NCBI GenBank assembly: GCA_964571525.1
Contig: CAZNBY010000006.1
Span: forward strand, 13,773-77,772
Length of the DNA stretch: 64,000 nt
Source: an uncultured Planctomycetota bacterium
GTDB lineage: Bacteria > Planctomycetota > B143-G9
Direction of reading: 5' to 3'
Positions within the stretch are counted from its first letter, which is position 1. Each line of letters opens with the position of its first letter. The translations under genes and the position numbers were made by a program. Shown here piece by piece: positions 13,736-56,187 of this stretch. The notes beneath the pieces are model-generated. The model did not search any database, had not been told where the DNA came from, and worked only from the letters and a program-made list of their open reading frames with translations.

Positions 13736-13851
13736 CGTGCCCCCTTGTTTTCGTCTATTATATCGGGTAGTACCCTTTTTTCTATAAGCATCGCATCTGC
13801 GCTTATCACTGCAATTACCTGCTGCAATATTGCAGTATAATTCTGTATGAG

Positions 13852-31244: not shown

Positions 31245-32756
31245 TTATCGTTTCTTTAAATCATCCGGTTTGATCAGCGTAGGCTCTTCGCCTTCGCTCT
31301 TCTTATTCTCATCTGGCACCGCTTTGCCAAGGAACTCAGGCAGTTCGAGACCGACCATCTTTGCAAGCTGATGCATTGGAGGAAGCGTACCCATCAACCT
31401 CTTTCCAAGGTTGTTCAGGCCACCTTCGCCACCACCATCCCAGACAAATACCTTTTCGATAGGCAGATCCTTGATTGCCTGAGCTTGGATGCCAGCGATA
31501 TCGGTAAGCTTTTCGATGAGCAGCAACGCCGCAGTGAGTGAAGGTTCTGAATTGCATGCCTGAACAAGCGCGCGGTATCCTGCAGCTTTAGCGTCGAGGA
31601 TAGCCTGTATGCCTCGGGCTTCGGCCTGCATTTTAAGTACAACGGCTTCAGCTTGGCCAGTTGCGATGCGAATCGCGCGTTCCTTTTCAGCATCAGCATT
31701 GATGATTGTTTTCTGCTTTTCGGCTTCTGCTGGAACAACAATTTCAGCCTTATACCGGGAGGCCTCGCGCAGTGCTCGCGCATCTTCTGCCTCTTTCTCG
31801 GCCAACTCCTGTGCAACGCGAATGGCTCCATCGGCCTTTTTCTGCGCTGAAAAACCCTTTTGACGGGCATCTTCCTCGGCAACTTTCTGATCTGCGCGAT
31901 ATGCAGCTTTCTTCGCCTCTGCTTGAGTTTCTGACTCAACAGCTTCTGCGTCAAGGCCCGCGACATTCTGACGGCGGTCCCTATCGGCTTTAGACTCGCC
32001 GATTACAGCAAGAGCATTTGCCTCAGCAACTGCCTTTCTGCGGTCGCGCTCGCGCTCAGCTACACCGGTTTTTCCGCGCTTTTCCTGTTCAGCAACATCA
32101 ACCAGAGCCTGATTTATAGCCTCAGCAGCAGCCTTTCTACCAAGAGCCTGTATATAACCACTCTCGTCCTCGATGTCCTTTATGTTAACATTGATAACAG
32201 AGAGGCCAATCTTTTCAAGCTCGTACGATACAGCTTCGTTCACCTTAAACATAAAGGCTTGGCGGTCGCGGTTAATCTCCTCGATTTGCATTGTGGCGAT
32301 AACAGCGCGCATCTGGCCGAGAATAATATCCTCAGCCTGCTTGCGTATCTCCTGCTCTTTCAGACCAAGAAGACGAATCGAGGCATTTTCGATGATTCCC
32401 GGCTCAATGCTAACTGCCGCGGTAACAGTTGTAGGAACAGAGACGCGAATGTTCTCTTGAGAAAGTGCGCTTGTAAGCTCGATTGGGACAACGAATGGCT
32501 CAAGATCAAGCCAAGCATATGACTGGATGATAGGCCACACAAATGCTGCACCTCCATGAATGCACTTTGCTGCCCCCTTCCCCGTTTTGCCGTATATAAC
32601 AAGCACCTTGTTCGAGGGGCATCGCTTGTATCTGCGCACAAGCGTTATGAAGACAACAAACGCCACAATGACGACAATGACACCAAGCAGGAACTGGATT
32701 GGCACATTGGACTCATATGCGGCTGAAAGACGCAGAAAACTAAGGTAACCACTCAT
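31245..32756 (-). CDS. Flotillin-like SPFH/band-7 protein (YqiK/FloT type)
   Basis: N-terminal TM, SPFH domain, long EA-rich coiled-coil (AEEDARQKG...EAEKQKTI...), C-terminal flotillin tail. Confidence 0.85.
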   Translation of the reverse strand: MSGYLSFLRLSAAYESNVPIQFLLGVIVVIVAFVVFITLVRRYKRCPSNKVLVIYGKTGKGAAKCIHGGAAFVWPIIQSYAWLDLEPFVVPIELTSALSQENIRVSVPTTVTAAVSIEPGIIENASIRLLGLKEQEIRKQAEDIILGQMRAVIATMQIEEINRDRQAFMFKVNEAVSYELEKIGLSVINVNIKDIEDESGYIQALGRKAAAEAINQALVDVAEQEKRGKTGVAERERDRRKAVAEANALAVIGESKADRDRRQNVAGLDAEAVESETQAEAKKAAYRADQKVAEEDARQKGFSAQKKADGAIRVAQELAEKEAEDARALREASRYKAEIVVPAEAEKQKTIINADAEKERAIRIATGQAEAVVLKMQAEARGIQAILDAKAAGYRALVQACNSEPSLTAALLLIEKLTDIAGIQAQAIKDLPIEKVFVWDGGGEGGLNNLGKRLMGTLPPMHQLAKMVGLELPEFLGKAVPDENKKSEGEEPTLIKPDDLKKR

Positions 32757-32807: not shown

Positions 32808-33413
32808 TTACAGCTTGACCACTTCGACAGTCTTGGCGTCAATTATCTTTTTGACCAAGACCTTGGTGCCTGCGGGTAGGCTTTCATTATTTGCGCTCCG
32901 TGCAGCGACACAGCATAGCCTTCCGCTCATCATGATGCGGACCTGGCCCAGTTTTCCATCCTTGATGTCCATGTACACTTCACCATGGGTGTTAAGAGAG
33001 GTCTGAATTGAAGCATTACCGGTCTCCTGCATTCTGAGAAGTTGCCAGAACAACCAGGACACAAGGACCATTGCGACAATACCCCAAAGAGCGCTGTATA
33101 GCATAGCTTTGATGTAGGAAAAATGTATTGAACCTTCGTCTGCGAGGAAAAGGAAACCGGCCCAAGAAAAAAGAAGCAGAAAGGCCACAATCGAGCGGAT
33201 TGAAAACAGCTTGAAGGCAATCATGGTGCCTTCGCCTGCATGGTCGGCAGAATCGCCAGCAGTATGCGAGGTTTCGGAAGCGTCAAAATCGGCATCTGCG
33301 GTTAGGCCAATCAAAGCCATGATGAACTGCCAAGCAAATATCAACGAGAAAAAAATCGCCAGGCAGAAGAACACCTGACGCATTAAGCTCAAGCCTTCCC
33401 AAAACTCTTGCAT
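32808..33413 (-). CDS. NfeD-like (YqiJ-type) membrane protein partner of flotillin
   Basis: Multi-TM N-terminus plus C-terminal OB-fold-like GEVYMDIKDGKLGQVRIMMSG...VLVKKIIDAKTVEVV. Lies directly upstream of the flotillin gene. Confidence 0.65.
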   Translation of the reverse strand: MQEFWEGLSLMRQVFFCLAIFFSLIFAWQFIMALIGLTADADFDASETSHTAGDSADHAGEGTMIAFKLFSIRSIVAFLLLFSWAGFLFLADEGSIHFSYIKAMLYSALWGIVAMVLVSWLFWQLLRMQETGNASIQTSLNTHGEVYMDIKDGKLGQVRIMMSGRLCCVAARSANNESLPAGTKVLVKKIIDAKTVEVVKL

Positions 33414-33635: not shown

Positions 33636-34736
33636 TTAGTCACCTTTCCCGAACAACCTTAGCAACCAGGCGAAGAATCCAGCTTTTTTAGGCCTTGATG
33701 CATCAACCTTGATTATCTGAGATTCACCCGTTACTGCGCGACGGCAGTAGATTGAGAAGCGACCAAGAAGTATCTCGTCTCCGGGTCGCACCATGCGCCC
33801 CGTTACTACCTTCTCAAGATTCACATAAACGCCTGATGCTGTGCCCATGTCGTCTATTAAAAGGCTGGTGCCGTCGAACGAAATTCTCGCGTGCTGGGGG
33901 GATACTCCGTCATCTTCGATGACAACATCGCAGTTTTTATCTTTGCCAAGCGTTACGGTGCCGTATGGAAGCTCGAATTTTCGCTCAGCGCCTTTTATAT
34001 TGAAGCACAGAACATAAGGAGACTTGCGGGTGTCGGTGTTCTTTTTAGCTGCAACCGGTGGAGCGGTGGGAGGTGGTGGAGGAGAGGAAGCTCTTCTTGC
34101 GTTCTCAACCTGCTGCATCATCTCAGACATGTCAATAAATGATGTTGAGCCTGAATCGGGTTGTTGAAGCTCGGGTGGAAGCTCCTTTTCTTCGTGCTGC
34201 GACAGGTCGGCTTTGTCCTGCTGGGTTACGATGTTTCGCATGTCAACATATTCTGTTGACGGTGCTTTTTGCTCGGGGGGCTTTCCACCGAACAATTTGC
34301 CCATATCAACATATTCTGTTGAGGGGGCTGATTTTTTGGCCTGAGGAGCCGACGAAACTGCAGCATTCATATCAATGAATGCTGTTGCCTCACTTGCGTC
34401 AACATCATCAGGTGCGGATTGCGGTTGAACCTGCACTGGTGCTGCAGTCGGAGCGACGAACAGAAATTCTGCTTCGCCAACGCGAATCTTCTCACCGCCT
34501 TTAAGCTCGCGAGTGATAATCTGTTCGCCGTTCACATTCGTGCCATTTGCCGAGCCAAGGTCTTTGACAATGACCTTACCGATTTGCACGACGATTTCAG
34601 CATGATGACGAGACATGCCAGATTGCTTGATGACAAGGTTGTTGTCATCTGACCTGCCGATAGAAAGTCGGGTGGTGAACTTGATAACCCGGCCCTCAAA
34701 ACCGGCACTGATACCGATGAGTTTGTACTCTTCCAT
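33636..34736 (-). CDS. Dual FHA-domain protein with internal [ST]x[YF][VI]DM repeat region
   Basis: N-terminal FHA (GRSDDNNLVI...SRHHAEI...DLGSANGTNVNGE). C-terminal FHA (GKDKNCDVVI...SPQHARI...DMGTASGVYVN). Four TEYVDM/FIDM motifs lie between them. Confidence 0.8.
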   Translation of the reverse strand: MEEYKLIGISAGFEGRVIKFTTRLSIGRSDDNNLVIKQSGMSRHHAEIVVQIGKVIVKDLGSANGTNVNGEQIITRELKGGEKIRVGEAEFLFVAPTAAPVQVQPQSAPDDVDASEATAFIDMNAAVSSAPQAKKSAPSTEYVDMGKLFGGKPPEQKAPSTEYVDMRNIVTQQDKADLSQHEEKELPPELQQPDSGSTSFIDMSEMMQQVENARRASSPPPPPTAPPVAAKKNTDTRKSPYVLCFNIKGAERKFELPYGTVTLGKDKNCDVVIEDDGVSPQHARISFDGTSLLIDDMGTASGVYVNLEKVVTGRMVRPGDEILLGRFSIYCRRAVTGESQIIKVDASRPKKAGFFAWLLRLFGKGD

Positions 34737-34839: not shown

Positions 34840-35979
34840 ATGGATTTCGTTACAACGCTTTTAGAGCGCATAGAAAATGCACTTGAAACGCTTGTTGTCG
34901 GCGTACCAGTATGGCGTTTTGTGCTTGCCGCACTTATAATCACGGTTGCATTGATCGCCCGCAGACTAATTGCGACGCTGCTAAGCAAGCTGATGTCCAA
35001 CTTCGCCGCAAAGACAGACACAAATCTTGACGATTACATTCTCGAGGCTGCCTATCGCCCAATGCAGTGGGCAATCGTGGTCATTGGTACAGAGATCGCG
35101 GTTCTTACTTTCCCGTGGCTGACAATCGCGGGTTCTGAAGAAGCCCATGTTGCGCTCGAGAAGAGCTTTATGAACATATTCGCGCTGTTCTATATATGGA
35201 TAGGCGCGTTTTTCTTATGGCAGCTTGTCGAGAAACTTGGTCTTCTGTTCTTAGAGAAGCGCACGGAGGAGGAAAAAAAGACCAACATCTCGATTGTCGT
35301 TGTTACGATGCGGAAGTTCTTAAGGATTCTGATCATTGTGATCGCCGCTGCAATGACACTCGAACGGCTTGGGCAGGACATAAAGATGATCCTCGCCTCA
35401 TTCACTGTCATTTCTGCCGCCCTTGCGTTTGCGGGTCGAGATGCGATCGCGAATGTATTTGCCGCTATTGTGCTGAGCGTAGATCGTCCGTTTTCGATAG
35501 GCGATTGGGTAGTTGTCGGTGGCACAGAGGGAACAATAGAAGAGTTGGGTATGCGTTCAACAAAGATCCGTACATTTGCCAAATCTCTTGTGCATATTCC
35601 CAACAATCAACTTATGAACATGACCATAGAGAACATGTCGGCGAGGCCTATGCAGCGTGTACGGGCTAATTTCGGCATAACCTATGACAGCGACCCCGAG
35701 AAAGTCGAACAACTTGTCGCCGGTATTCGCAAGATCATCGAGTCGAATCCACGAACTTACAAAGACTACATTCAGGTCTGGTTCACAGAACTTGCGAGCG
35801 ATAATCTGTCAATAATGCTCTATTTCTTCATCGAATCGAAGGTGTGGGCCGAATTTCTTGAGGAACGCCAGCGGATTTACATTGATATTATGAAGCTTGT
35901 AAAGCGCATGGATCTCGAATTCGCCTTCCCGACCCAGACTATCTTTCTGCACGAGGATCAGAAGGAGCTTCCAAAGTAG
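34840..35979 (+). CDS. Mechanosensitive ion channel (MscS family)
   Basis: Three TMs followed by SIGDWVVVGGTEGTIEELGMRSTKIRT, the conserved MscS beta-domain. Confidence 0.85.
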   Translation: MDFVTTLLERIENALETLVVGVPVWRFVLAALIITVALIARRLIATLLSKLMSNFAAKTDTNLDDYILEAAYRPMQWAIVVIGTEIAVLTFPWLTIAGSEEAHVALEKSFMNIFALFYIWIGAFFLWQLVEKLGLLFLEKRTEEEKKTNISIVVVTMRKFLRILIIVIAAAMTLERLGQDIKMILASFTVISAALAFAGRDAIANVFAAIVLSVDRPFSIGDWVVVGGTEGTIEELGMRSTKIRTFAKSLVHIPNNQLMNMTIENMSARPMQRVRANFGITYDSDPEKVEQLVAGIRKIIESNPRTYKDYIQVWFTELASDNLSIMLYFFIESKVWAEFLEERQRIYIDIMKLVKRMDLEFAFPTQTIFLHEDQKELPK

Positions 35980-35985
35980 CGGGCG

Positions 35986-38844
35986 TCAGAATTCTGTATC
36001 GCTTTCAACCTTGGGTTCAAGCGGCAGTTTTATTGTGAATGCTGCGCCCATTCCGACCCCTTCGGAATGGGCAGTTATCGAACCGCCCATCGCCTTCATC
36101 AGATTAAAGGATGAATGGAGACCGAAACCGGAACCACCCTTGGCTTTCTTGGTGCTAAAACCGAAGCCGAACAACTGAGCACCAGTCTCTTTTGAAAAAC
36201 CAATTCCGCTGTCGGTCACCCTTATCTCAATCATGCGAGTCGTTGGGTCAAAGCTCGTCTCGACCTTGATCTCTTTGTTTTCGCTTTGGGCAGCGTCAAT
36301 TGCCTCGATTGCGTTTTTCACCACATTTACAAGAACTTGCAGCAGTTTGTTCTTTTCGACCTTAACCTCGGGGACCTGCCCGAACTGGTAAGAATGCGAT
36401 ATCTTGCGCTTTGACATGGTCTCGCGATTCATCTCAATTGCATCAAGCACAAGCTTGGAAATCTGAATTGTCTCAATTATGCCTCGGATCATCGCGAAAG
36501 TGGCATGAAGCGAGATTATTTCTGTGATGTGCGATAGCTTCTCGCGGATGAATAGAGTGTTTTCTGTAATCTTCATGCGAGATTCAGCAAGTGCTTGCAC
36601 AAGGCTGAGCAGATAGTTGTGATACCTTTCCCAATTTTGCACCAACTCCTGTGCATCCAATTCTGCGATGTAACTCAGCTTTTTGTCGAACTGCACCGAA
36701 TTGAGCATGTCAGAAGCCTCGTTGAGTCGAACTCCGACAGAATTGATCGCATTTCCGATGTTATGCAATACCTCACCCGCGACTTGTACCATGCCTGCGC
36801 TGTGAGCATATTCAATCAACTGCTGTCGCGTTTCCCTCATGTCGCGCTCATGCTCTGCAAGCAATGTCGCCGTCTCGCGGCGAATGCTGGCGATCTCATG
36901 GTGAAGGCGCGAAATTACCGATGTATCGGTAAGGAACAGATATGTCTCGCCACTTGTTTTGTCCGACCTGATGCACTTAACATCTGCGCTTCCCGAACTT
37001 CCGTCAAACCGAATAAAGCTCACAGACCCTTTCCATATTTCACTTGTGCTGGCAAGAAACTGCCGCAGTTTCTTGTCGCTCGAATCGGCGAAGCCCAAGC
37101 CACTGAATATGTTGATGCCGAAAAGCTCGCGAGGGTCTGGGTATAAAAACAGGTCTGAGGCTGCCGAGTTGCAAAAAATTATGTTGCCCGCACCGTCAAG
37201 CCGCAAAACTCCTTCGAGCAACGATTGCATCATGTCTCGGGAATATTGCCGAAAACCTTCAAGCTCTTTTGAAGAGTCATGGCGTTGAGTATCGAGCTGT
37301 GCGTTTAAGCTGAGAACGCTTTGCTTAAGATCATCCTCAAGGCTCATGTCACGAACAAGTGTGATGCGAAAGTTCTCGTATCCAATTGTAATCTGCCGTT
37401 CGATTACTCCGACTGGTATTGTGGTCTCGTCCTTTTGCACCAATAACGGGCGAAATGTGTTGAATGAGGAATCGCCGGAAATATCCTTCTCTCGTTGTTC
37501 GCGTCGAAGCAAAGAGGTAATCTTCATCGAGTTCAGCTCATCGTGACTGTATCCTGATATGCTTACGATGGCTTTGTTACACTCGACAATGGTACCGTCC
37601 TCTCGTGACAACAAATAGCCATCAGGCAATAGGTCGGTAAGCTCTGTGAGCTTTAGGATGGTGCTTCTGTATTCTGCTTCCTTTTCATCAGAATATAGCA
37701 GGCGCAGGTTGTAGTCATGAAAGTAGTTATCGAACTCGTGCCAAAGCTCATCTGCCTCTGCAGGAAGAGATGCGGGTTTAACAGCATTCTCATCACCCTG
37801 AGAAATTGTGCGCACGCTTAATGTCAATTCTGAGAAAGCGTTTCGCAACCAAGATGCATAGAAGAAAGCGAGCAAGGCAAGAAGAATGATGAATGCAAGC
37901 AACATTAGAGTCTGTACGATAGAAAAGGGAGGAACAGACGCCAAGAGCTTTGCCTGATCGAAAAAGAGCACAAGCTTAAGGTTGCCTGATTTCATCTTAT
38001 TCACGAAGGCAATGAACTCGTTAGCTTTGACCTCGACGGTTGTTCCGACCGCGTTTTCCTGTAGTAATGTCTTAAGCTTCCATTCTATCTCCTCTCGAAC
38101 CGCAGCATCGTGCTTAACCGCGCTGAAAAGGCTTGAGAACACATGTCCATCAGAATCAAGGTCAAACCAGAGCTTTTTAGATACATCGTCAATAATCAAT
38201 GCACCAGACAAGCTGGGGTAGGAATACGCGACATCGAGAATGTCCTCTGAAAGGTCTGCAAGTGACAAAACGACTCCGAGCGAATTGCTTGTTGTCGGCG
38301 ACGAAATGCGCCAAAACCCCGCAACAGCGGGCACATTTGCGCGCCAAATGAAGGGTCTTGACCAGCAGAAACCTTCCTTGTTTTCTTCGCAGTTAAGAAC
38401 ATCCCACATCACGCTCTCTTCGAATATCTCAGAATCACGAGGAGGCAAAGGGTCGGGTATTATCTTGCCCCCAAAAACCACATACACCATAAGTGTGTTG
38501 GGAAGAAGACGGTTGATCTCTCCCTTTATGGTTCGAAGTGAGTCCACTGCTCTACTAATATCAACCTGCTCCGTTGCAAGAATTGTCTGCTGAAGCTCGG
38601 TTCGATACGCCATGGTCTTAAGCAGCGTCTCATACTTGCTCACATTTGCATTGAGCTGTGAGAGAATTGCAGAATTGCAGTGAGATGCAGATTCATTTAT
38701 GCTTGAGGTAACTCGTTCGCGCTGGTACTTGATGGAGTAGATAAAGAACCCAGTCAACACGACCAGAATTGGCACGACGAGCATTATCAATGCCCGCGAA
38801 AGTATATGGCGGTGATTGAACTTAAATATTGACAAATACACCAC
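35986..38844 (-). CDS. Membrane sensor histidine kinase with periplasmic sensor region and PAS domains
   Basis: Two TMs bracketing an extracytoplasmic domain. PAS segments. H-box region HNIGNAINSV. HATPase_c G-boxes DSGIGF / GGSGFGL. Confidence 0.85.
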   Translation of the reverse strand: MVYLSIFKFNHRHILSRALIMLVVPILVVLTGFFIYSIKYQRERVTSSINESASHCNSAILSQLNANVSKYETLLKTMAYRTELQQTILATEQVDISRAVDSLRTIKGEINRLLPNTLMVYVVFGGKIIPDPLPPRDSEIFEESVMWDVLNCEENKEGFCWSRPFIWRANVPAVAGFWRISSPTTSNSLGVVLSLADLSEDILDVAYSYPSLSGALIIDDVSKKLWFDLDSDGHVFSSLFSAVKHDAAVREEIEWKLKTLLQENAVGTTVEVKANEFIAFVNKMKSGNLKLVLFFDQAKLLASVPPFSIVQTLMLLAFIILLALLAFFYASWLRNAFSELTLSVRTISQGDENAVKPASLPAEADELWHEFDNYFHDYNLRLLYSDEKEAEYRSTILKLTELTDLLPDGYLLSREDGTIVECNKAIVSISGYSHDELNSMKITSLLRREQREKDISGDSSFNTFRPLLVQKDETTIPVGVIERQITIGYENFRITLVRDMSLEDDLKQSVLSLNAQLDTQRHDSSKELEGFRQYSRDMMQSLLEGVLRLDGAGNIIFCNSAASDLFLYPDPRELFGINIFSGLGFADSSDKKLRQFLASTSEIWKGSVSFIRFDGSSGSADVKCIRSDKTSGETYLFLTDTSVISRLHHEIASIRRETATLLAEHERDMRETRQQLIEYAHSAGMVQVAGEVLHNIGNAINSVGVRLNEASDMLNSVQFDKKLSYIAELDAQELVQNWERYHNYLLSLVQALAESRMKITENTLFIREKLSHITEIISLHATFAMIRGIIETIQISKLVLDAIEMNRETMSKRKISHSYQFGQVPEVKVEKNKLLQVLVNVVKNAIEAIDAAQSENKEIKVETSFDPTTRMIEIRVTDSGIGFSKETGAQLFGFGFSTKKAKGGSGFGLHSSFNLMKAMGGSITAHSEGVGMGAAFTIKLPLEPKVESDTEF

Positions 38845-38929: not shown

Positions 38930-40183
38930 TCAAATCCAGTTTTCAAGCCATTTACGCACACGGGAACTTATTGGCGCATCCCCTTCTGCAGGAGTTGTCA
39001 TTGAATGGGCACGATGCGCGAAAGTTAGCCGCAGCAAACCTGTCAAACGGGATGATAATGGGTCTTTACGCCCTGATTTGCTGACTTCAACGCGACCGGT
39101 TCTTACTGACGACTTGAACACGCCTCTGCATAGCTCAACAAGACCAGTAACATTCGATGAATAACCGCCAAGCACAACGGAATCAATGCCAGCGATTAGG
39201 TCGCGGGATTCAAGGCTCTTGCGCACGGATTCAATAAAGCCACGATAGTGCTCATCAACAATATCCCAGATTGCACCAAGAGTGATTTTCGCAGGTGGAA
39301 ATCCCTCTGCTGCATCAAACGACACCTCAATGCCTCTTTCGAGCATAAAATCGCCACGAACATTTACTGAGGCATGGGCATCAAGTATGCATTCCGCAGT
39401 TAGATGAGATACATTGAACTCGCGCGCAATTTTGGCTACAAGCTCTTTTTGACCAAACGGAAACATAGCAGTATAGCGTGGTTTACCCTTTGAAAGCAGC
39501 ATCACATCTGTGCATCGCTCTGCGACATCAATGATCAGAGTAGTTACGGATAAGTCGGATTGCGAAAGCAATGAGATAGTGTTCGCCCAACCATCATAGA
39601 AAACTGTCTCTACTTTCCATCCAGATTTTGTTACGCTTCTAACAAGATTGTCAAATGCCTCTGTTCTGCATGTGATGATGTGAGATTCGCATTCAAGCCG
39701 TGTACCTTCAAGTCCCTCAGGATTATCGAGTCGCCTTTTGTCGTCAACCGCAAAGCTGACGGGGATCACATTAAGTACCTTTCGATCTGACGGCAGTTCA
39801 ATCTTCCCCGATGCGGCAATTGCCTTAGAAAGGTCTTCTGAGTTGATCGTTTTCGGTGAAGAGCCTAATATGACGGCACCACGCGAATTAAGACCCACCA
39901 CGGGGCCTCCGCTTAGCCCAATGGTAAGCGAAAATATCTCAGCAACTTCGGCTTTTTTAGCTGCCTCGCTGACTGATTCACGCACAGACTCGACGAATCG
40001 GGGAAAGTCTGTTGGAATGCCGTCATCAATATCGCAAGAGCGTACTGAGGCAAAGGAAAGCTGCTTGAAATCCTCGCCCTTTTGCACCGCGATTCCCGCA
40101 ATCACTCGCCCCTGCAATGGTAGCACTGCGGCCGCAATCTGAATCGTTGGTTCTTTAGTTTTTATCTCACCGTTTTCCGGCAT
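38930..40183 (-). CDS. ftsA: FtsA-like actin-fold cell division protein (divergent)
   Basis: Position after ftsQ. RLECESHIITC and VVLGGYSSNVTGLVELCRGVF correspond to the FtsA RLEVEVHLITC and IVLTGGGAQLPGL motifs. The DIGGGT phosphate-2 motif is replaced by DVAERCT. Confidence 0.55.
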   Translation of the reverse strand: MPENGEIKTKEPTIQIAAAVLPLQGRVIAGIAVQKGEDFKQLSFASVRSCDIDDGIPTDFPRFVESVRESVSEAAKKAEVAEIFSLTIGLSGGPVVGLNSRGAVILGSSPKTINSEDLSKAIAASGKIELPSDRKVLNVIPVSFAVDDKRRLDNPEGLEGTRLECESHIITCRTEAFDNLVRSVTKSGWKVETVFYDGWANTISLLSQSDLSVTTLIIDVAERCTDVMLLSKGKPRYTAMFPFGQKELVAKIAREFNVSHLTAECILDAHASVNVRGDFMLERGIEVSFDAAEGFPPAKITLGAIWDIVDEHYRGFIESVRKSLESRDLIAGIDSVVLGGYSSNVTGLVELCRGVFKSSVRTGRVEVSKSGRKDPLSSRLTGLLRLTFAHRAHSMTTPAEGDAPISSRVRKWLENWI

Positions 40184-41126
40184 CTTTGCTCCCCTTAAGG
40201 CTCAAAGTCGCATTCTCGTAAGAAAGGTCAATGTATGATATGTCGTTGATGTCCCCCACCCTCTTCAGTGCATCCTTGAGGTTCTGGAGTTTATGTGCGC
40301 TACCGGGTCTGCCGAAGGCAGATTCCTCTTCAAAATACATATCCCAGATTATTGCTCCGCCCGAAAGCAAGCGCATTGTTATCGCGGGCTTGCCCGTTGT
40401 AATGCTCTGGTTCGCAGGCGCACATTCAAAGCGTTCGACAGTGCTAAGTAGATTGATAAAGCCCTCTTTGTCGAGCATGTTATTCGTAATGTACTTCATC
40501 AAGCCGAGCGAGTCCTCCACATACTTTGTCTTCCAAATCTCTCCGCTGCGCGACGGTGGAGGTTCTTGCACACCAGTGATAGTAATAAGGTGGATGCCAA
40601 GATCGGTGTCAGGTTTAAGAGGCAGAAGCACACCCTGCCTGTCAATGATGTACTTCTTCCCTTTCCACGCCACCGCGGAAAAGGGCCTTCTTAGGCTAAG
40701 ATTTACCCATACTATATTGGGAAAACGCCTTTGAATGCTGAGAACTTTTTCAACCCAGGGATTGTCGAGGAACGCAGTGCGAAGAGTTGAGAACAGCCTA
40801 TCATCCCATATCTTCATACCTTCAACACGCCTTCCAGACGCAAGAATTGAGACGAAGTGATCGGCGGGTATATGAGGAGGACGGTATTTGGCAGAAGTTT
40901 CGAGTATGAAGGAGTTTGAACTGTTAACAGTGAACACCATCTTAGCGCAGTCACAGTTATATAGGCTGTTAGAGGAAGCCATAGAACCGGATGCGACTAT
41001 GAAAAAGATCAATAAAGAGACAAGGCCCGCCGTTTTGAGAAATGTTGGGGATAGCATAATAATAAGAAGGGTCGAGCCAAGTTTGCTCCAGAATTTGCTC
41101 GAACCGGTTTCGTTCGGTTTAGCCAT
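40167..41126 (-). CDS. ftsQ: FtsQ/DivIB-like cell division protein
   Basis: Single TM followed by POTRA-like and beta domains. Canonical position between ddl/SLT and ftsA. Start chosen at the internal Met (MAKPNET); the six-frame ORF extends to 41234. Confidence 0.5.
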   Translation of the reverse strand: MAKPNETGSSKFWSKLGSTLLIIMLSPTFLKTAGLVSLLIFFIVASGSMASSNSLYNCDCAKMVFTVNSSNSFILETSAKYRPPHIPADHFVSILASGRRVEGMKIWDDRLFSTLRTAFLDNPWVEKVLSIQRRFPNIVWVNLSLRRPFSAVAWKGKKYIIDRQGVLLPLKPDTDLGIHLITITGVQEPPPSRSGEIWKTKYVEDSLGLMKYITNNMLDKEGFINLLSTVERFECAPANQSITTGKPAITMRLLSGGAIIWDMYFEEESAFGRPGSAHKLQNLKDALKRVGDINDISYIDLSYENATLSLKGSKDAGKR

Positions 41127-41694
41127 TGTCGCGTCTCCCGTAATACTCGCGTTCTTTCTCCAAGTAACGCGAGGCGCGCTGTATGTATGTTCGAGTCTCA
41201 GCAATTGGGCAGTTTCTAACGACCTCTTCCCCATCTCTTCCTTGATTTGCAGAAAGCCAGCGGTAAACCCTTGCTGGGCCAGCGTTGTATGAAGCCATTA
41301 AAACTTGGGGCTGTGACCCAAACTGCTCTTTTAGCCAAGACAGGTAGAATGTTCCATATCGAATATTGAGATCGGGCTCTTTCAAAGCTGAAATGCTCGG
41401 AGTAGGCTCTTTGAGAAGTTTGGCTATCATCTCCGCAGTCGCTGGCATGACTTGCATCAACCCAATTGCCCCTGCCCTTGAGACTGCGGCTGGATTACCA
41501 CCGCTTTCTGCGCGTATGACAGCCATAACAAGAGCGGGTTCAACATCGTAGATATCACAGTATTTTTCAGCAATGGGACGAAGCATTTCGATGGATTGCT
41601 GGCTGCTTTCGAATAAGCCGTAAAGAAAGGCAGCGATAAGACCCAACGCAAGCGCTGATATAACTGTCGCCGCGTTTGATCTTTTCTTTCTCAT
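41119..41694 (-). CDS. Lytic transglycosylase (SLT domain), membrane anchored
   Basis: ESGGNPAAVSRAGAIGLMQVMP catalytic signature. Confidence 0.8.
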   Translation of the reverse strand: MRKKRSNAATVISALALGLIAAFLYGLFESSQQSIEMLRPIAEKYCDIYDVEPALVMAVIRAESGGNPAAVSRAGAIGLMQVMPATAEMIAKLLKEPTPSISALKEPDLNIRYGTFYLSWLKEQFGSQPQVLMASYNAGPARVYRWLSANQGRDGEEVVRNCPIAETRTYIQRASRYLEKEREYYGRRDNG

Positions 41695-41696
41695 TT

Positions 41697-42752
41697 CTAC
41701 CTTCCAAAGCCGGCTGACATGATTCTGTTAAGCTCAGACCCCGCCCTTCTGCCCTCTGGTGTGTCGCTGAATTCCGAAGTAAGTTGGGTAAGGGTTGCAG
41801 ATGCATCGCTTGCCTTTTGTAAAGCGAACTCAAGCTCATATTTGCGCCACAATATAGGTGGCTGCTTTGCATGAGGCAACCCCTCGTTTAACATGGCAAT
41901 TATGTAACGCAACTCCGTTGCTTCAAGACCACCGCTAAACGCAGTTTCAATCGCGGCCTGAAGCACAAGGCGTCTTGCTTCCCCACCACGAATAAGGCAG
42001 AAATATGCATCGAACTCCACTAAAGCATCCTTGCTGCCACACGCCTTCGCGCGATTTACGAGCCATTCAGACAAGGCTTGAGCAGACTTGACGCTCGAAT
42101 GGCGGCTTCCTGCCTCAAGCAACGCGATTCGGGCGGCATGTTCATATTCGCCATTCTCGCGCAACAAGCTGCATGCGATTGAAGCAGCACGGGAGGATTG
42201 TGGAGAAGATGGAGATTCACGGAATATCTGCTCAAGTATGGCGCAGCAACGGTCTGAATCTCCGTTATCACGATGGTGAAGAGCGATGTACATCAATGCG
42301 GCGGGTCTGCGCCACGAATTTGGGTATTTTGCCACAAATAGTTCAAGCGCGCTTAATCCGCTTTCTTCCTCACCCGCATTCATCCTTGCAAGGCCGCATT
42401 CGAATAAGGCACCAGCGGAAATTGAGGTCGAAGGAAACTCGCGAAGCACTCGTTCGAAGCATGAAATTGCCTCTTGAGGCTCCTCACGAAGATATGAGTA
42501 GTACATGCCCAGAGAATAAATCGCAAGAGGCGTATCTGGGGTGTCGAGCTGTGCGCAGGTTTTCCAGTTATCAACCTGAGAACCGCTTATTGGCTCGTTT
42601 CTTATAAAGCAGAAAGCATCGGTTGGGTATGTCAACGATTTATCTGTAAATCGCGTTTTCACCGCATCGAATGCGCGAAAATAAGCACGCTCTGCGAATA
42701 GCCCGCAGACAAATGCAATGGTGAAAAACACGACAAACAGGACTGTCTTCAT
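41697..42752 (-). CDS. Secreted TPR-repeat protein
   Basis: Signal peptide. Multiple TPR-like helical repeats (AISCFERVLREFPSTS..., AAILEQIFRESPSSP...). Confidence 0.5.
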   Translation of the reverse strand: MKTVLFVVFFTIAFVCGLFAERAYFRAFDAVKTRFTDKSLTYPTDAFCFIRNEPISGSQVDNWKTCAQLDTPDTPLAIYSLGMYYSYLREEPQEAISCFERVLREFPSTSISAGALFECGLARMNAGEEESGLSALELFVAKYPNSWRRPAALMYIALHHRDNGDSDRCCAILEQIFRESPSSPQSSRAASIACSLLRENGEYEHAARIALLEAGSRHSSVKSAQALSEWLVNRAKACGSKDALVEFDAYFCLIRGGEARRLVLQAAIETAFSGGLEATELRYIIAMLNEGLPHAKQPPILWRKYELEFALQKASDASATLTQLTSEFSDTPEGRRAGSELNRIMSAGFGR

Positions 42753-43693
42753 TTTCTTTTCGCCGCGGTTATCTTTGGCCGTAAAGCCTGATGTATCGCC
42801 ATCTCGCAGAGCTGAGGCAGCTTGATGCCGAGCTTTGACGCCGCAAGAGGTACAAGGCTATGGTCAGTCATGCCCGGCACTGTGTTCACTTCAAGCACAT
42901 AGGGGATGTCATCTTGACCAAGAATAATGTCAACACGGGCAATCCCGCTGCATTCGAGCACATTGTAGGCATCACGAGCACATTGTACCAGAGTTGATAT
43001 CTTGCGCTCGTTTAGGCCATGGTCGAACGAAAATTCAACCAAATTATCGCCGTACTTGCATTTGAAGTCGAAAATTTCATGCTTAGGTTTGATTTCGATA
43101 ACGGGCAGTGCCATGTTGTCAATAATGCCAACTGTGAATTCACGCCCCTTTATGAACTTCTCGACCAATACAACATCATCATGCAAAAAGGCGTTGCTGA
43201 GTGCTTCTTCAAATTCAACGGGATTGTGCGCAACAGAGATACCAAGCGTAGAGCCTTCACGCGAGGGCTTAACGACAAGTGGATATTCAAGAGCATTCGA
43301 ATTGACTTTCGAACTTTCGCCACTTTTCACAACAAATCCTGCGGCAACACGCAAACCAGCACGCTCGAATAGCCTTCTCGATTCTACCTTATCCATCCCC
43401 CGTTTGGATGCAAGACTTGATGAACCTGTAAATGGGATACCCCGTTTTTCCAGTATCTCTTGCAGTCTGCCATCCTCACCAAATTTTCCATGCAAGGCGA
43501 TGAAGACAATATCGCATTCGATTTCAGGCACACTGCTGACAAAACCTTCGTCAACATCAATAAGTGAAACCCGATACCCAAGGTGTTGAAGCGCCTTAGC
43601 GACATTACTACCTGTTTCAAGGGATATATTGCGTTCTGCCGATATGCCACCGTACAAAACTGCAACATGAAATCTACATCTATCGCAAGCCAT
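42749..43693 (-). CDS. ddl: D-alanine--D-alanine ligase
   Basis: VAVLYGGISAERNISLETG N-terminus and ATP-grasp motifs (EVNTVPGMT). Confidence 0.85.
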   Translation of the reverse strand: MACDRCRFHVAVLYGGISAERNISLETGSNVAKALQHLGYRVSLIDVDEGFVSSVPEIECDIVFIALHGKFGEDGRLQEILEKRGIPFTGSSSLASKRGMDKVESRRLFERAGLRVAAGFVVKSGESSKVNSNALEYPLVVKPSREGSTLGISVAHNPVEFEEALSNAFLHDDVVLVEKFIKGREFTVGIIDNMALPVIEIKPKHEIFDFKCKYGDNLVEFSFDHGLNERKISTLVQCARDAYNVLECSGIARVDIILGQDDIPYVLEVNTVPGMTDHSLVPLAASKLGIKLPQLCEMAIHQALRPKITAAKRK

Positions 43694-44579
43694 TCATCAC
43701 CTCCAGCGCATTTGCGCCGAATCCCCAAAGCTTAAGCTCAGGTTCAAGTCTTACACCGAACTTGGCAAACACGGCGATTTGGCACTCATTGATTAGTGTC
43801 ATGATGTCATCGGCATTATTGCCGTCATTAACTATGAAATTTGCGTGCTTTGGCGATATATAGGCATCGCCGCAACGCCTTCCTTTCAAGCCAGCCGCCT
43901 CGATCAGCTTACCAGCGAACAAGGGCTGGGGATTTTTGAACACCGATCCCGCAGTTCTCCCCCGCGGGTGATTGAGCCTCTTTTTAAGCACATCAAGGCA
44001 ACTTTCGCGCACGCTTACCTTATCTGTCTTCCTTAGTGCAAGCTCGCACTCAAGAATTATAAAACGCGCAAGGTTCGATCTTCTGTAACCAAAACCGCAT
44101 TTTTCGGCGGGAATACTGAGAAAACGACCGCCGTCAAAAACAGTAACGGATGTAACTACATCACTGATTGTCCCAAGTGGGGTGCCTGCATTGCCGACTA
44201 TCGCTCCACCAATTGTCCCCGGAACACCCATGCAACCTTCAAGCCCTGATAGTCCATTTCGAATGCAGCCAATCTGCAAAGCGCCCATCATAGTACCTGC
44301 GCCTGCACGAACGGTACAGCCGTCGAAGTCCAGTCGAGCAAGTGTACCTTTCAAGCATATCACCATACCGCGCACGCCTTCATTCGCGACGAGTAAATTC
44401 GTGCCTCGTCCGAGTAATAAGATTGGAAAACCATTTCTATATGCGAATTCGCAGCACTCGGCGAGCTGATCCCGGTCGTTAACCTCGGCGTAAAACCGCG
44501 CAATACCGCCTGCGTGAAAGGATGTCTTTTCAGCAAGGCTGACATTCTCAAGGATAAGATTACTCGCCGCTTCTATCAA
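43680..44579 (-). CDS. murB: UDP-N-acetylenolpyruvoylglucosamine reductase
   Basis: FAD-binding domain GRGTNLLV, GGAIVGNAG. Confidence 0.85.
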   Translation of the reverse strand: MIEAASNLILENVSLAEKTSFHAGGIARFYAEVNDRDQLAECCEFAYRNGFPILLLGRGTNLLVANEGVRGMVICLKGTLARLDFDGCTVRAGAGTMMGALQIGCIRNGLSGLEGCMGVPGTIGGAIVGNAGTPLGTISDVVTSVTVFDGGRFLSIPAEKCGFGYRRSNLARFIILECELALRKTDKVSVRESCLDVLKKRLNHPRGRTAGSVFKNPQPLFAGKLIEAAGLKGRRCGDAYISPKHANFIVNDGNNADDIMTLINECQIAVFAKFGVRLEPELKLWGFGANALEVMNGLR

Positions 44580-45960
44580 CGAAACGCTCTCCTAACTTTC
44601 TGATATCGCCAGCACCCATCGTAACTAATAAGTCACCCGGTTTGCACATTGTTTTCAGGTGCTTAAGGATCAGCTCGTTTTTAGAGATGTACTGATAGTT
44701 AGTAAAGCCCAAGTCATTAAGATGACGAGCGACAAGATATGATGTGACGCCCGTTATCGGGGTCTCGTTTGCCGAATAAATCTCTGCAAGGACAACATAA
44801 TCAGCCGCGGTTAGAGCTGTGGCAAGTTCTTTTGCCAACGCCGCTGTGCGTGTATATCGGTGAGGTTGGAAGACGATAACAAGCCGCTCAGCCTTTAGCT
44901 CACGCAGAGCTTTGATTGTCTCACGAATCTCGGTTGGATGGTGGGCATAGTCGTCAACAACGCGAATGCCACCAACTTCACCAAGTGCATCTTGCCTTCT
45001 GATGACACCACGCAGTTTTGCTGTGGATTTTGCCATGCCTTTAGGGTCAAGCCCTAACAGCGAGCATAGAGTAAGCGCGCCAACGCAATTTGACAAATTG
45101 TGTTCGCCAAGAAGCGGGCAATCGAACTCACCGATGCTTTTTCCACGAACCTCAAGCGTAAATGTGCGCTTAATGCCGTTCATTACGACATTCTTCGGAC
45201 AGGCGTCGTTGCTGCCTTTTAAGCCATAAAACACGACATCACGGTTTATCCCTTCGAGCGCAGATCGGATGTTCTGATCATCACCGCAAGCCACGATGTA
45301 CCCGCCATCCGTGTTTTCTGCATATTCCCTGAATACCGCTTTGACATGGTTTATGTCACGATAGTAATCAAGGTGCTCAAGGTCAATGTTAGTGATAATG
45401 GAGTTGTTTTGATTCAACATCAGCAGAGAGCCGTCACTTTCATCAACTTCTGAGATGAAGTACTTGCCCTTGCCAATGTGAAAACTCGCGTGCCATTCGT
45501 TGACGCGACCGCCAACCATAACAGCAGGATCGTAATCTTGATCGCTGAACAACTGCGAGACAATGTAAGTTGTGGTCGTCTTGCCGTGCGAACCAGCAAT
45601 TCCGATGCTGGTGCGTGAACGAAGCAACCGCGCAAGCATAAGCGCGCGAGGCACAATTGTTATGTTGCTTTCGCGTGCGGTAATCATCTCGAGATTATGC
45701 AGTGGAATCGCGGACGAATAAACAACGATATCTGTGTTCTTTACATGCTCTGGGCTGTGACCAACACACACTTTCACGCCTGCCTGTACACAGGTCTTTG
45801 TCGCCTCGCTTTCGCATACATCGCAACCTGATACAATCGCGCCCTCCTTATGCGCCATTATGGCAATCGAGCTCATAGATATTCCGCCGACCCCGATGAA
45901 GTGGATGCGCTTGCCTTTTATCTCAAGATTATCAACAGTGGCACCCTGCGAGAAAATCAT
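44560..45960 (-). CDS. murC: UDP-N-acetylmuramate--L-alanine ligase
   Basis: IHFIGVGGISMSSIA and GSHGKTTTT P-loop. Start at the Met immediately abutting the murG stop; the ORF extends to 46008. Confidence 0.9.
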   Translation of the reverse strand: MIFSQGATVDNLEIKGKRIHFIGVGGISMSSIAIMAHKEGAIVSGCDVCESEATKTCVQAGVKVCVGHSPEHVKNTDIVVYSSAIPLHNLEMITARESNITIVPRALMLARLLRSRTSIGIAGSHGKTTTTYIVSQLFSDQDYDPAVMVGGRVNEWHASFHIGKGKYFISEVDESDGSLLMLNQNNSIITNIDLEHLDYYRDINHVKAVFREYAENTDGGYIVACGDDQNIRSALEGINRDVVFYGLKGSNDACPKNVVMNGIKRTFTLEVRGKSIGEFDCPLLGEHNLSNCVGALTLCSLLGLDPKGMAKSTAKLRGVIRRQDALGEVGGIRVVDDYAHHPTEIRETIKALRELKAERLVIVFQPHRYTRTAALAKELATALTAADYVVLAEIYSANETPITGVTSYLVARHLNDLGFTNYQYISKNELILKHLKTMCKPGDLLVTMGAGDIRKLGERFVDRSGE

Positions 45961-47051
45961 CTTTTGCTCCCCGAGCTTATACGCTCTATTAATTCTTTTG
46001 CGACGCAATCAGCCGCGTCTGGCTTTGCAACTGCTTTCATTGCATTTGTCATATCCTCGCGCTCCGCTGGATCGTGGGAAATGCTTTTCAATTCCTCTAT
46101 CAGCTTGGCCGAGGTAAGGTGTTTTTCGTTTAGCACTTTGACTGCCGACTTCGCACGCAGCACTTCTGCATTTGCAGCCTGATGGTTGTCTGCAGCGGTC
46201 GGCAGTGGAACAACGACTGATGGCACGCCTGCCAATGCTAATTCTGCAAGCGTGACTGCGCCAGCTCGCGTCAGTGCCACAGTCGAACAGCGATATATGT
46301 CAGCCATTTGGTCGGTATAGGCATAAACCTCGCAGTTAGGTTTTCCCGAATAAAACTGCTTGGCTGCATCATAATCGAGCTTGCCGGTGATGTGTATTAA
46401 TCTAAAGCCCGGAAATTCAAGCTGCAACTGCGGATACGCTGCTACAATAGCCTTGTTGAGAGCGCGAGCACCTTGCGAACCGCCCAAGACCAACAAACAT
46501 TCGCCCTTACCGAGGTCTCGGGTATGTTCGCGAGCTAACTCACCGACTATCTTCGAACGCAACGGCACACCTGTTTTTACAAAAAAGGCGCGCTTCGAAA
46601 GATAATCTCGCGCCTCTGAAAAGTTTGAAAACACGCACTTGGCTTTGGATGCAAACCACCTTGTTACTGAACCCGGTATCGCGTTAAGCTCAAGCAGAAA
46701 GTACGGAATCCCCTTGATTCTTGCTGCGACCAAGGTCGGAACTGATGCGTAACCGCCAAGCCCAAACACAGCGTCCGGCTTTCGTTCGTTGAACATCTTC
46801 AGCACTGCGGGGACAGATACAACAGCTCCAAATCCACGACGCACCACTGGAAGAAGGCCTCCAGATACTCGCTTCATGCCATTCGATTTGTATGTAATCC
46901 CCTCGCGCGGGACAAGTTCGCTTTCAAGTCCTCCCTCTGCGCCAATCCACATTACATCACAGCCTTGCTTCACGAGGCTCTCTGCAATAGCAATACCAGG
47001 GGTGATATGCCCCCCAGAACCTCCTCCAGCAAGGACAATCAGCTTGTTCAC
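45957..47051 (-). CDS. murG: UDP-GlcNAc:lipid I N-acetylglucosaminyltransferase
   Basis: MNKLIVLAGGGSGGHITPGIAIAESL. Confidence 0.9.
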   Translation of the reverse strand: MNKLIVLAGGGSGGHITPGIAIAESLVKQGCDVMWIGAEGGLESELVPREGITYKSNGMKRVSGGLLPVVRRGFGAVVSVPAVLKMFNERKPDAVFGLGGYASVPTLVAARIKGIPYFLLELNAIPGSVTRWFASKAKCVFSNFSEARDYLSKRAFFVKTGVPLRSKIVGELAREHTRDLGKGECLLVLGGSQGARALNKAIVAAYPQLQLEFPGFRLIHITGKLDYDAAKQFYSGKPNCEVYAYTDQMADIYRCSTVALTRAGAVTLAELALAGVPSVVVPLPTAADNHQAANAEVLRAKSAVKVLNEKHLTSAKLIEELKSISHDPAEREDMTNAMKAVAKPDAADCVAKELIERISSGSKR

Positions 47052-48157
47052 AACTGCACTCCCGAATTGAGCCGTGCGCCTAATTGTTCAGGTGCGCTTT
47101 CAAGCTCACTTACTCTGTCAATAGACATAAGTATTCCAACACCGACAAGCATAAAGGCCATTGCACTGCCTCCAGCAGATACGAATGGCAACGCAATGCC
47201 CTTATTTGGCAGAATTCCGGTAACGACACCAAGATTTACAAAAGCCTGCAATCCAATCATTGTCGTAATACCACAGGCAACAAGCATGCCATACATATCT
47301 CGTGCCCTGGTTGCAATTGAGATGCCTGTCAAAACAAAAGCTATGTAGCAAAAGACGATTATCAAGGTGCCAATAAGACCGGCCTCCTCACCGACTACCG
47401 CTAAGGCGAAGTCTGTGGTGGCAAGAGGAACATAGTGCAGCTTTTGTATCCCGTCACCAAGACCAGTGCCTGTTACACCACCAGAGCCAAGCGCGATCAG
47501 AGCCTGCTGTACCTGATAGTCGTGTCCGCCACCCACAAATGTTTTAAGTCTCTCACTGACATGTCCGAAATTCATCAGCATGAAGGCACCGGCAACAACA
47601 AGCAAGACCACAAAGGTTGGCAAGAGATGCATTACTCTGAAACCAGCGACAAGCAACATGCCAAGTATCACGGTTCCTAACAGAATCGTTGTACCAAGAT
47701 CAGGTTCGACTGCAATGCAGGCAAGAAGCACTGTCGCCCAGGCGACAGCGGGAACAAGACCATGCCAATACTCCCTTACGCGCTCTTGCTTTCTGCAAAA
47801 GAAATCGGCAAAAAAGAGAATAAAGACCACCTTAGCCAATTCAGATGGTTGAAATGAAAGAGGACCCAATAGGATCCAACGCTTTGCGCCATTAATGCGG
47901 GCACCAAAGATAAGGACGCCGACAAGCAGAATCACCGCGACAATAATCATTGGGATTACATAGGGGCGTATGTTGCGATAGTCAACAAACGACAATGCGA
48001 TCATCGCACCAAGCCCGACAAGCAGGCTTATCACATGCTTTGCGACAAGCCATAGCTGACTTGATGAATCGGCAGTTGAAGAAAAGGCGAAAACGATACT
48101 AATCGCCAGCAGGAACGAGACTATTAAGAATATCTTATGCCGGGATTGAATCGTCAT
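47048..48157 (-). CDS. ftsW: SEDS-family peptidoglycan glycosyltransferase FtsW
   Basis: 10-TM SEDS architecture, PNKGIALPFVSAGGSAM. Confidence 0.85.
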   Translation of the reverse strand: MTIQSRHKIFLIVSFLLAISIVFAFSSTADSSSQLWLVAKHVISLLVGLGAMIALSFVDYRNIRPYVIPMIIVAVILLVGVLIFGARINGAKRWILLGPLSFQPSELAKVVFILFFADFFCRKQERVREYWHGLVPAVAWATVLLACIAVEPDLGTTILLGTVILGMLLVAGFRVMHLLPTFVVLLVVAGAFMLMNFGHVSERLKTFVGGGHDYQVQQALIALGSGGVTGTGLGDGIQKLHYVPLATTDFALAVVGEEAGLIGTLIIVFCYIAFVLTGISIATRARDMYGMLVACGITTMIGLQAFVNLGVVTGILPNKGIALPFVSAGGSAMAFMLVGVGILMSIDRVSELESAPEQLGARLNSGVQL

Positions 48158-48161
48158 GATT

Positions 48162-49271: not shown

Positions 49272-49291
49272 TTTACCCCCCGAACGCTACC

Positions 49292-50686: not shown

Positions 50687-50689
50687 AGC

Positions 50690-52135: not shown

Positions 52136-52150
52136 GTTGTTTGCCTGTTG

Positions 52151-53866: not shown

Positions 53867-53873
53867 AATTCGC

Positions 53874-54788: not shown

Positions 54789-54807
54789 AGCTACCTCCGA
54801 AATACCC

Positions 54808-55110: not shown

Positions 55111-55114
55111 TGCA

Positions 55115-56029: not shown

Positions 56030-56187
56030 ATCGAACCTTAGAACTGAAGACGAATGTATCGCCCTTGACGATTACAGTCGGCTTGAGAATCAGGCCGTTT
56101 TTAACAGCCGTTACGCTTTCGATTACCGCTTGTGTCCTTGTTCTTGCCATAAATCAACTCCCGATATGTCTAAGCCCTTGCTTGGTA

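Follow-up and report, generated by a model that had tools for sequence, protein, structure and literature searches.

A divergent FtsA subfamily with degenerate nucleotide-binding motifs at the end of a planctomycete dcw cluster

The stretch of DNA analysed here (hereafter the window, 64 kb of contig CAZNBY010000006.1) carries on its minus strand a dcw cluster whose last gene encodes a divergent FtsA. We found that this protein belongs to a small subfamily that retains the FtsA fold, the 1C (SHS2) subdomain and the C-terminal tail, that has lost the Asp and Gly signatures of all three nucleotide-binding loops in every member, and whose gene is not followed by ftsZ. With moderate confidence, we propose that this remodelled FtsA acts as a nucleotide-independent, membrane-tethered adaptor for FtsQ, FtsL, FtsW and FtsI in a lineage of Planctomycetota whose division would be FtsZ-free. 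The coordinates of all features are collected in Table 1.

A distinct FtsA subfamily

The open reading frame (ORF) at the end of the cluster is a true FtsA homologue, both by sequence and by predicted fold. The window protein scored 176.6 bits with TIGR01174, the NCBIfam ftsA equivalog model (marginally above its cut-off of 175.85), and matched Pfam SHS2_FTSA (PF02491, the 1C domain) with E = 3.6e-16; with Pfam FtsA (PF14450), which models the C-terminal ATPase domain, it reached 23.8 bits, under the cut-off of 31.8. Its top sequence matches in the PDB were the FtsA proteins of Vibrio, E. coli and Xenorhabdus (E ~1e-29 to 1e-30). An AlphaFold2 model was computed from a 73-sequence input (predicted local distance difference test, pLDDT, 92.7; predicted template modelling score, pTM, 0.89) and compared with the PDB by Foldseek. 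The leading matches were the FtsA structures 7q6i, 7q6f and 7q6d, with template modelling (TM) scores of 0.76-0.86, and the best matches were all FtsA, at 0.73-0.87 with one incomplete chain at 0.67. PilM structures gave 0.55-0.73, and MreB about 0.5-0.65 with root-mean-square deviations of 6-10 Å. The Pfam match, the model and the PDB matches agree on an actin-like fold in which 1C (SHS2) takes the place of 1B, the arrangement by which FtsA is recognised.

The first-pass annotation had left room for another actin-fold family with intact motifs, and none was found. PilM was rejected on its hidden Markov model scores (18.9 bits with TIGR01175, whose cut-off is 133, and 17.4 with PF11104, whose cut-off is 27), on the weaker fold match and on the neighbouring genes, which are dcw genes with no pilN, pilO, pilP or pilQ among them. 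MreB and ParM were rejected because no model of either matched and because MreB structures came far behind FtsA in Foldseek.

The protein has few close relatives. A word-indexed search of 5.8 billion clusters returned six, and an exhaustive profile search of 1.84 billion representatives returned 7 full-length proteins at 363 bits or more; after a fragment (P0022, 202 aa, 261 bits) the next full-length sequence scored at most 194 bits, the level at which ordinary FtsAs begin. The 10 full-length members are 34-59% identical to each other (mean 42%). They share a mean of 22% identity with ordinary FtsAs, compared with 35% for ordinary FtsAs among themselves. All ten are intact and full-length, with 49 invariant columns, which speaks for purifying selection and against gene decay. 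Only 3/10 pass the TIGR01174 cut-off (range 125-193 bits, against 393.5 for an ordinary FtsA), and the NCBI copy in one metagenome-assembled genome (MAG) is annotated 'hypothetical protein'; surveys based on orthology would thus mostly score the gene as absent. When GTDB representative genomes were scanned with the subfamily alignment, a single locus was recovered, in a MAG of Candidatus Brocadiia, a class of Planctomycetota. The same scan of metagenomes gave that contig again and one ordinary FtsA locus, used below as a control (L009).

Table 1. Position, strand and supporting evidence of the features discussed, in window coordinates unless another locus is named
Feature	Coordinates	Strand	Evidence and details
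ftsA-like gene	38930..40183	-	417 aa, ATG start; TIGR01174, SHS2_FTSA, AlphaFold2, Foldseek
Phosphate-1 equivalent VLPLQGR, residues 20-26	40106..40126	-	alignment and model; coordinates checked by translation
1C (SHS2) subdomain, residues 95-171	39671..39901	-	PF02491; includes NPxGLxGxRLECxxH segment
Phosphate-2 equivalent DVAERCTD, residues 219-226	39506..39529	-	hairpin loop 221-224 in model
2B subdomain, ~residues 244-312	39248..39454	-	secondary-structure elements still predicted in model
Adenosine-motif equivalent SVVLGGYSS, residues 335-343	39155..39181	-	strand 335-340 then helix in model
C-terminal amphipathic helix ISSRVRKWLENWI, residues 405-417	38933..38971	-	model helix 405-416 after low-confidence linker
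Divergent ftsQ-like gene	40167..41126	-	319 aa from Met37 of ORF; 17-nt overlap with ftsA start
SLT lytic transglycosylase	41119..41694	-	Pfam SLT E = 3.9e-31
TPR protein	41697..42752	-	Pfam TPR matches
Remainder of dcw cluster	42749..56751	-	ORF translations; Pfam labels of same genes in L001, L004
Bitopic 2xLysM protein	53874..54881	-	one transmembrane helix, acidic Pro-rich linker, two peptidoglycan-binding LysM domains
FtsL-like ORF, 100 aa	54808..55110	-	FtsL_2 E = 1.3e-4, DivIC E = 1.7e-3 (weak)
PAS sensor histidine kinase	35986..38844, probable start 38784	-	PAS and HATPase_c matches
Genes past kinase, MscS/FHA region	34840..35979; 33636..34736	+; -	L006 14217..17346

Degenerate nucleotide loops and a conserved 1C subdomain

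We aligned the window protein and nine full-length relatives with 139 ordinary FtsA representatives. At phosphate-1, the motif L-D-I-G-T-[TS]-K of ordinary FtsA is replaced by [VIA]-[ILV]-P-[LMF]-x-G-[RK] in the subfamily, and the signature [DE]xG, present in 137/139 ordinary FtsAs, occurs in none of the ten members. The loss of Asp and Gly had been noticed in the first-pass annotation, which gave IQIAAAV as the replacement; this second part did not hold, since residues 14-20 (IQIAAAV) form the beta-1 strand and the equivalent of the motif is VLPLQGR. In the model, VLPLQGR spans the end of beta-1, the hairpin loop (residues 24-25) and the start of beta-2. At phosphate-2, DVAERCTD is aligned with DIGGGTTD of ordinary FtsA, as had been proposed. 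The consensus changes from D-I-G-[GA]-G-T-T-D to D-V-[ACTGSE]-[EDS]-x-[HCYG]-[TS]-D; the first Gly is found in 137 of the 139 ordinary sequences and in one of the ten members, and the third-position Gly in 116 of 139, as compared with at most one of the ten members. At the adenosine motif, G-V-V-L-T-G-G becomes [SCA]-V-V-L-[GASC]-G-[YEFKAW]. Its first Gly (125/139 in ordinary FtsA) is S, C or A in the subfamily, and the second Gly of the GG pair (133/139) is Y, E, F, K, A or W in all ten. The earlier statement that this motif is retained was right only in part: G340 is present in every member, but the window protein has SVVLGGYS where GVVLTGGG is expected. The RLExExHxITC segment was also said to be retained, and indeed the window protein contains RLECESH.

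The residues that replace the signatures are themselves conserved: P22 in nine of the ten members, G25 and R/K26 in all, H224 in seven, and an acidic residue (E/D) at 222, within phosphate-2, in nine. Because the motifs are conserved in their degenerate form across all 10 members, their degeneration is not a matter of chance. The loops fall at the beta-hairpins and at the helix start of the model, so that the alignment of the motifs is structurally sensible. Misalignment was considered and rejected, as the loops match predicted hairpins and the vicinity contains no DxG[ST] motif. From the loss of these motifs we infer that ATP binding has probably been lost.

We then counted, for each subdomain, how many of the columns conserved in at least 80% of ordinary FtsAs are kept in the subfamily. 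The 1C subdomain (counted over residues 93-172) has kept 12/14, and the C-terminal part of 2A 7/13. The counts were 4/10 for the N-terminal part of 2A, 3/10 for the N-terminal 1A and 2/9 for 2B, in which seven columns are replaced. The C-terminal amphipathic helix, which the first-pass annotation had advised looking for, is predicted at residues 405-416 after the linker. The tail pattern [WYF]-[LFI]-x-D-x-[FLI] is present in 10/10 members and resembles the W-[FL]-[KR]-[ED]-F-F tails of ordinary FtsA; the hydrophobic moments of the subfamily tails are 0.51-0.87, and the modelled helix is probably a membrane-targeting sequence.

What is known of these subdomains in ordinary FtsA gives this pattern a meaning. 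The 1C domain lies close to the membrane and may help to bind divisome proteins such as FtsQ, FtsA double filaments make their lateral contacts through it, and it binds the FtsN tail in the 1A-1C cleft (PMC7613929). The interaction with FtsZ requires 2B (PMC4281207), and the title of PDB entry 4A2A supports binding of the FtsZ tail by 2B. Retention of 1C and of the tail, together with changes in the nucleotide loops and in 2B, fits an FtsA that would be independent of ATP and FtsZ and would still depend on the membrane and on late divisome proteins. No candidate for a substitute partner of FtsA emerged in the window, where the last 30 residues of every ORF were searched for a peptide like the C-terminus of FtsZ, [DE][IVLF]Px[FWY][LIMV], without a match.

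The same data bear on whether the gene could be a functionless relic, decaying after the loss of FtsZ. The disappearance of the catalytic motifs would agree with such decay, as would the rarity of the subfamily (six close matches in 5.8 billion clusters) and the loss of ftsA altogether in most Planctomycetota (PMC12283558). However, ten full-length ORFs remain intact down to 34% mutual identity, the degenerate motifs are conserved as such, and 1C and the amphipathic tail have been selectively kept. The AlphaFold model is confident, and the start of the gene overlaps the ftsQ-like gene and is preceded by a good ribosome-binding site, AAGGGGAG, 6 nt 5' of the ATG. We thus regard decay as very improbable.

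A dcw cluster with a kinase in place of ftsZ

The ftsA-like gene closes a minus-strand run that extends from 56751 to 38930, in the order mraZ, rsmH, ftsL-like, a LysM protein, ftsI, murE, murF, mraY, ftsW, murG, murC, murB, ddl, a TPR protein, an SLT lytic transglycosylase, ftsQ-like and ftsA-like. We compared it with the loci of the relatives. L001, L002, L003 and L008 are JBAZOJ010000036 ('Candidatus Brocadiia bacterium', 45% identity); L004 is a Logan contig identical to the window; L005 is GCA_053988915.1; L006 is GCA_034521065.1, on a 348-kb contig; and L007 is a short Logan contig with the L006 protein. The order murC-murB-ddl-TPR-SLT-ftsQ-like-ftsA-like was found in all relatives with an upstream flank, that is, all but L007.

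The pairing of ftsQ with ftsA described in the first-pass annotation is present, in that the ftsA-like gene overlaps a divergent ftsQ-like gene; the overlap exists in the window, L001 and L005. The ftsQ-like product is bitopic, with one transmembrane helix and a periplasmic domain of ~270 aa, and orthologues 31-39% identical occupy the same place in L001, L004, L005 and L006. The window protein had no Pfam match, and one of the four orthologues gave a weak POTRA_1 match (E = 0.005). An hhalign comparison with E. coli FtsQ covered the POTRA motif with a probability of 1.6%; a single-sequence AlphaFold2 model had a pLDDT of 41.6, a profile search of the PDB returned chance matches only, and the word-indexed homologue search returned a single near-identical copy. 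The TPR and SLT genes between ddl and ftsQ-like are also found in L001, L004, L005 and L006. As this insertion occurs in every related locus covering the stretch, a peptidoglycan-cleaving enzyme is part of this dcw cluster.

At the ftsL position, the ORF of 100 aa encodes an N-terminal transmembrane helix followed by a coiled-coil-like segment and is probably a divergent ftsL. The gene for the 2xLysM protein sits between this ORF and ftsI, a place that is empty in ordinary dcw clusters. The two ORFs overlap, which makes Met32 the probable real start of the 2xLysM protein. Its overall layout is loosely similar to that of FtsN, a likeness of layout alone. No murD was found between mraY and ftsW (47048..49271 on the minus strand of the window; 861..3088 in L001) or anywhere else in the dcw cluster of the window; these two genes abut at both loci, and murD is consequently either encoded at another site or missing. 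In L006 (JAXHMW010000001.1, 1..8000 and 11343..14262), murF, ftsW, murG, murC, ddl and the kinase are fragmented, which suggests frameshift errors of the assembly instead of real pseudogenes; the ftsA-like gene is intact there.

Of the order ftsQ-ftsA-ftsZ, the last element is missing. No ftsZ was detected in the 64-kb window, either by tblastn with an E. coli FtsZ sequence or by a six-frame search with a tubulin-signature regular expression. Among the relatives, L001, L002, L004, L005, L006 and L007 likewise showed none downstream of the ftsA-like gene, over 1.3-10 kb of sequence except in L007. In contrast, the same query detected ftsZ with E = 6e-63 in the control L009, the closest ordinary FtsA locus found, where it lies directly after ftsA. 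The L009 protein shares RLECEAH with the subfamily, and its DLGAGTTD and GVVLTG motifs are intact.

The lineage agrees with this arrangement. All named homologues of the Der GTPase of the window (8669..10018) are from Planctomycetota, with the labels Planctomycetota bacterium, Gemmataceae, Phycisphaerae, Sedimentisphaerales and Telmatocola; identities are 57% for the nearest of them and about 46-51% for most. Together with the named relative from Candidatus Brocadiia, this places the lineage in the Planctomycetes-Verrucomicrobia-Chlamydiae (PVC) group, in parts of which the first-pass annotation had noted relocation or loss of ftsZ. It is most likely an uncultured, deep-branching planctomycete in which the ftsA-like gene has been retained vertically and has strongly diverged. 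Planctomycetota are reported to have lost ftsZ in all cases and ftsA in most (PMC12673574, PMC12283558). A 2025 survey mentions 'few exceptions' to the loss of ftsA (PMC12283558), and the literature we found on ftsA in Planctomycetota contains no description of degenerate nucleotide motifs in such an FtsA. The prediction of a pseudo-ATPase FtsA in a lineage that may have relocated or lost ftsZ is thus supported by three loops devoid of their signatures throughout the subfamily and with the lack of ftsZ in the window and after ftsA in the relatives.

Several points weigh against an adaptor in an FtsZ-free cell. The sequence available covers 64 kb of the window genome and, in the relatives, flanks of at most about 10 kb to either side. 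Absence of ftsZ from the whole genome is thus an extrapolation, and ftsZ or an additional ftsA of the ordinary kind may be encoded outside these regions. The first Asp of phosphate-2 (D219), T225-D226 and G340 of the adenosine motif survive and might still serve a non-standard ligand or mode of nucleotide binding. The strict phosphate-2 pattern DxG[GAS]G[TS] fits just 100/139 ordinary FtsAs, and given this variability the stronger signal comes from the missing phosphate-1 signature and the missing adenosine GG pair. Polymerisation of FtsA needs ATP in some species, so that loss of ATP binding might remove self-assembly, which is part of the scaffold idea. Assignment of the ftsQ-like gene is weak at the sequence level, and the lineage is deduced from the named matches of one marker protein and one NCBI label. 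The first three of these points, together with a fold that is intact in the model down to the secondary structure of 2B, would also suit a working FtsA with an unconventional mode of nucleotide binding that tethers an FtsZ whose gene has been relocated and not lost. We judge this quite unlikely, as the [DE]xG and GG signatures of ordinary FtsA are missing from all ten members, seven of the nine conserved columns of 2B are replaced, no subfamily locus that reaches past ftsA has ftsZ there while the control has it, and the named relatives belong to Planctomycetota, a phylum reported to be without ftsZ (PMC12673574).

The next gene on the same strand encodes a histidine kinase and not ftsZ, as first noted in the initial annotation. 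It occupies the usual place of ftsZ in three divergent lineages, the window, L005 (8011..10806) and L006 (11343..14262), on the same strand and 45-145 nt 3' of the ftsA-like gene, and the orthologues are 37-45% identical. The protein has two transmembrane helices around a periplasmic domain of ~260 aa. Its H-box, EVLHNIGNA[IV]NS, and its N and G boxes are conserved, and the kinase therefore looks functional from its sequence. Pfam HisKA did not match the window kinase, and a response regulator was not seen in those of the adjacent ORFs that were compared with Pfam. In a scan around the ftsA-like and kinase genes, promoter and terminator sites were no more frequent than in shuffled sequence.

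This arrangement raises the question of a use outside division, either as a PilM-like platform for another envelope machine or as a membrane partner of the PAS histidine kinase. Proximity to an orthologous kinase in three lineages, with no terminator-like site in between, speaks for such a partnership, and there is weak similarity to the PilM family (PF11104, E = 0.002; Amuc_1101, E = 1.4e-6). Nevertheless, the kinase is not downstream of the ftsA-like gene in L001. Every locus shows the ftsA-like gene as the final member of a complete dcw cluster, coupled in translation to ftsQ-like. The PilM models stay far under their cut-offs, PilM is a weaker structural match than FtsA, and pilN/O/P/Q neighbours are lacking. 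A role outside division is in our opinion distinctly improbable.

Beyond the kinase, an MscS channel is encoded on the opposite strand in the window, L005 and L006, followed in the window and L006 by a protein with two FHA domains; the C-terminus of the window FHA protein, GFFAWLLRLFGKGD, looks like an amphipathic membrane helix. Further away, two adjacent minus-strand genes (29939..31072 and 28463..29896) encode proteins with no Pfam match, one of which has the acidic run DEDEDEDEDD, and a flotillin/SPFH protein (31245..32756) and a small membrane protein (32808..33413) adjoin this pair. Four genes upstream of mraZ, a minus-strand gene (59427..62624) encodes a protein of 1065 aa with DUF4388 at its N-terminus, TPR repeats, a probable transmembrane segment and, at its C-terminus, a PQQ/BamB-like beta-propeller.

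Comparison with known systems and significance

We compared the subfamily with ordinary FtsA, taking as references the proteins of E. coli, Vibrio maritimus, Thermotoga maritima and S. aureus (PDB 7Q6D, 7Q6F, 1E4F/4A2A, 3WQT). It resembles them in fold, in domain order including the FtsA-only 1C/SHS2, in its linker and amphipathic helix, in the NPxGxxGxRLExxxH segment and in the location of the gene, which comes behind ftsQ (an ftsQ-like gene in the subfamily) as the last member of the dcw cluster. It differs in the loss of three ATP-loop signatures, in a mostly changed 2B and in the lack of ftsZ downstream, as well as in its lower identity and TIGR01174 scores. PilM (PDB 2YCH, 5EOU) likewise has an actin fold resembling that of FtsA, with a domain of the 1C type, and the adaptor mechanism proposed below is comparable; the subfamily is set apart from it by the model scores, TM scores and neighbours given above. 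Unlike the subfamily, PilM binds ATP or ADP in solved structures, as stated in the PDB titles, and it is not known to have a C-terminal amphipathic helix. The cytoplasmic domain of GspL/EpsL, from type II secretion, offers a precedent: it is actin-like and related to FtsA and PilM, no longer binds nucleotide and acts purely as a protein-protein adaptor at the inner membrane. GspL/EpsL is a bitopic protein of a secretion system without a 2B-type subdomain, and we liken it to the ftsA-like protein by description.

Two further parallels come from the literature. The 1A-1C cleft of PilM binds the short cytoplasmic tail of the bitopic protein PilN (PMC7613929). The FtsA of Deinococcus radiodurans was reported to have no ATPase activity (PMC4281207), so that hydrolysis is not universal in the FtsA family. 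This protein still binds ATP, however, on which its polymerisation depends, and it acts together with FtsZ (PMC4281207); the subfamily is without the binding motifs themselves. Division without FtsZ in the PVC group, organised by MreB in Chlamydia and also found in Planctomycetota, keeps proteins of the FtsQ, FtsL, FtsW and FtsI type (PMC5147048, PMC12283558, PMC7613929). Those dividers have no FtsA, in contrast to the window lineage, which keeps a remodelled one.

Our preferred explanation is therefore an adaptor. The protein has kept the FtsA architecture, that is, the actin-like 1A/2A core, 1C, 2B, a flexible linker and a C-terminal amphipathic helix that would hold it at the membrane. The phosphate-1, phosphate-2 and adenosine loops, which hold ATP and Mg2+ in actin-fold proteins, are without their Asp and Gly signatures, and the protein would be a 'pseudo-ATPase' that acts independently of nucleotide. 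Its conserved 1C subdomain may hold or organise the FtsQ-like and FtsL-like proteins, FtsW and FtsI, which are bitopic or polytopic septal peptidoglycan proteins and products of this cluster, during a division that would proceed without FtsZ. A bolder version, which we consider unlikely, makes the nucleotide-free FtsA the primary cytoplasmic organiser of FtsZ-independent, peptidoglycan-based division: it would self-assemble at the membrane without ATP and recruit FtsQ, FtsL, FtsW and FtsI through 1C, and the conserved kinase might replace the spatial or temporal control once exerted by the Z-ring.

The means by which Planctomycetota divide without FtsZ are still to be explained, and surveys score ftsA as present or absent by orthology call. 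A subfamily that straddles the TIGR01174 cut-off is easily missed in this way and may explain the exceptions mentioned in the survey. In a phylum whose lack of FtsZ had been reported before, it represents a natural separation-of-function FtsA, in which the parts linked to ATP and FtsZ (the loops and 2B) have been let go and the membrane anchor and 1C have long been kept. If the absence of ftsZ from these genomes is confirmed, the subfamily would reveal which activities of FtsA are useful without FtsZ and would provide a concrete candidate protein for FtsZ-free division by binary fission.

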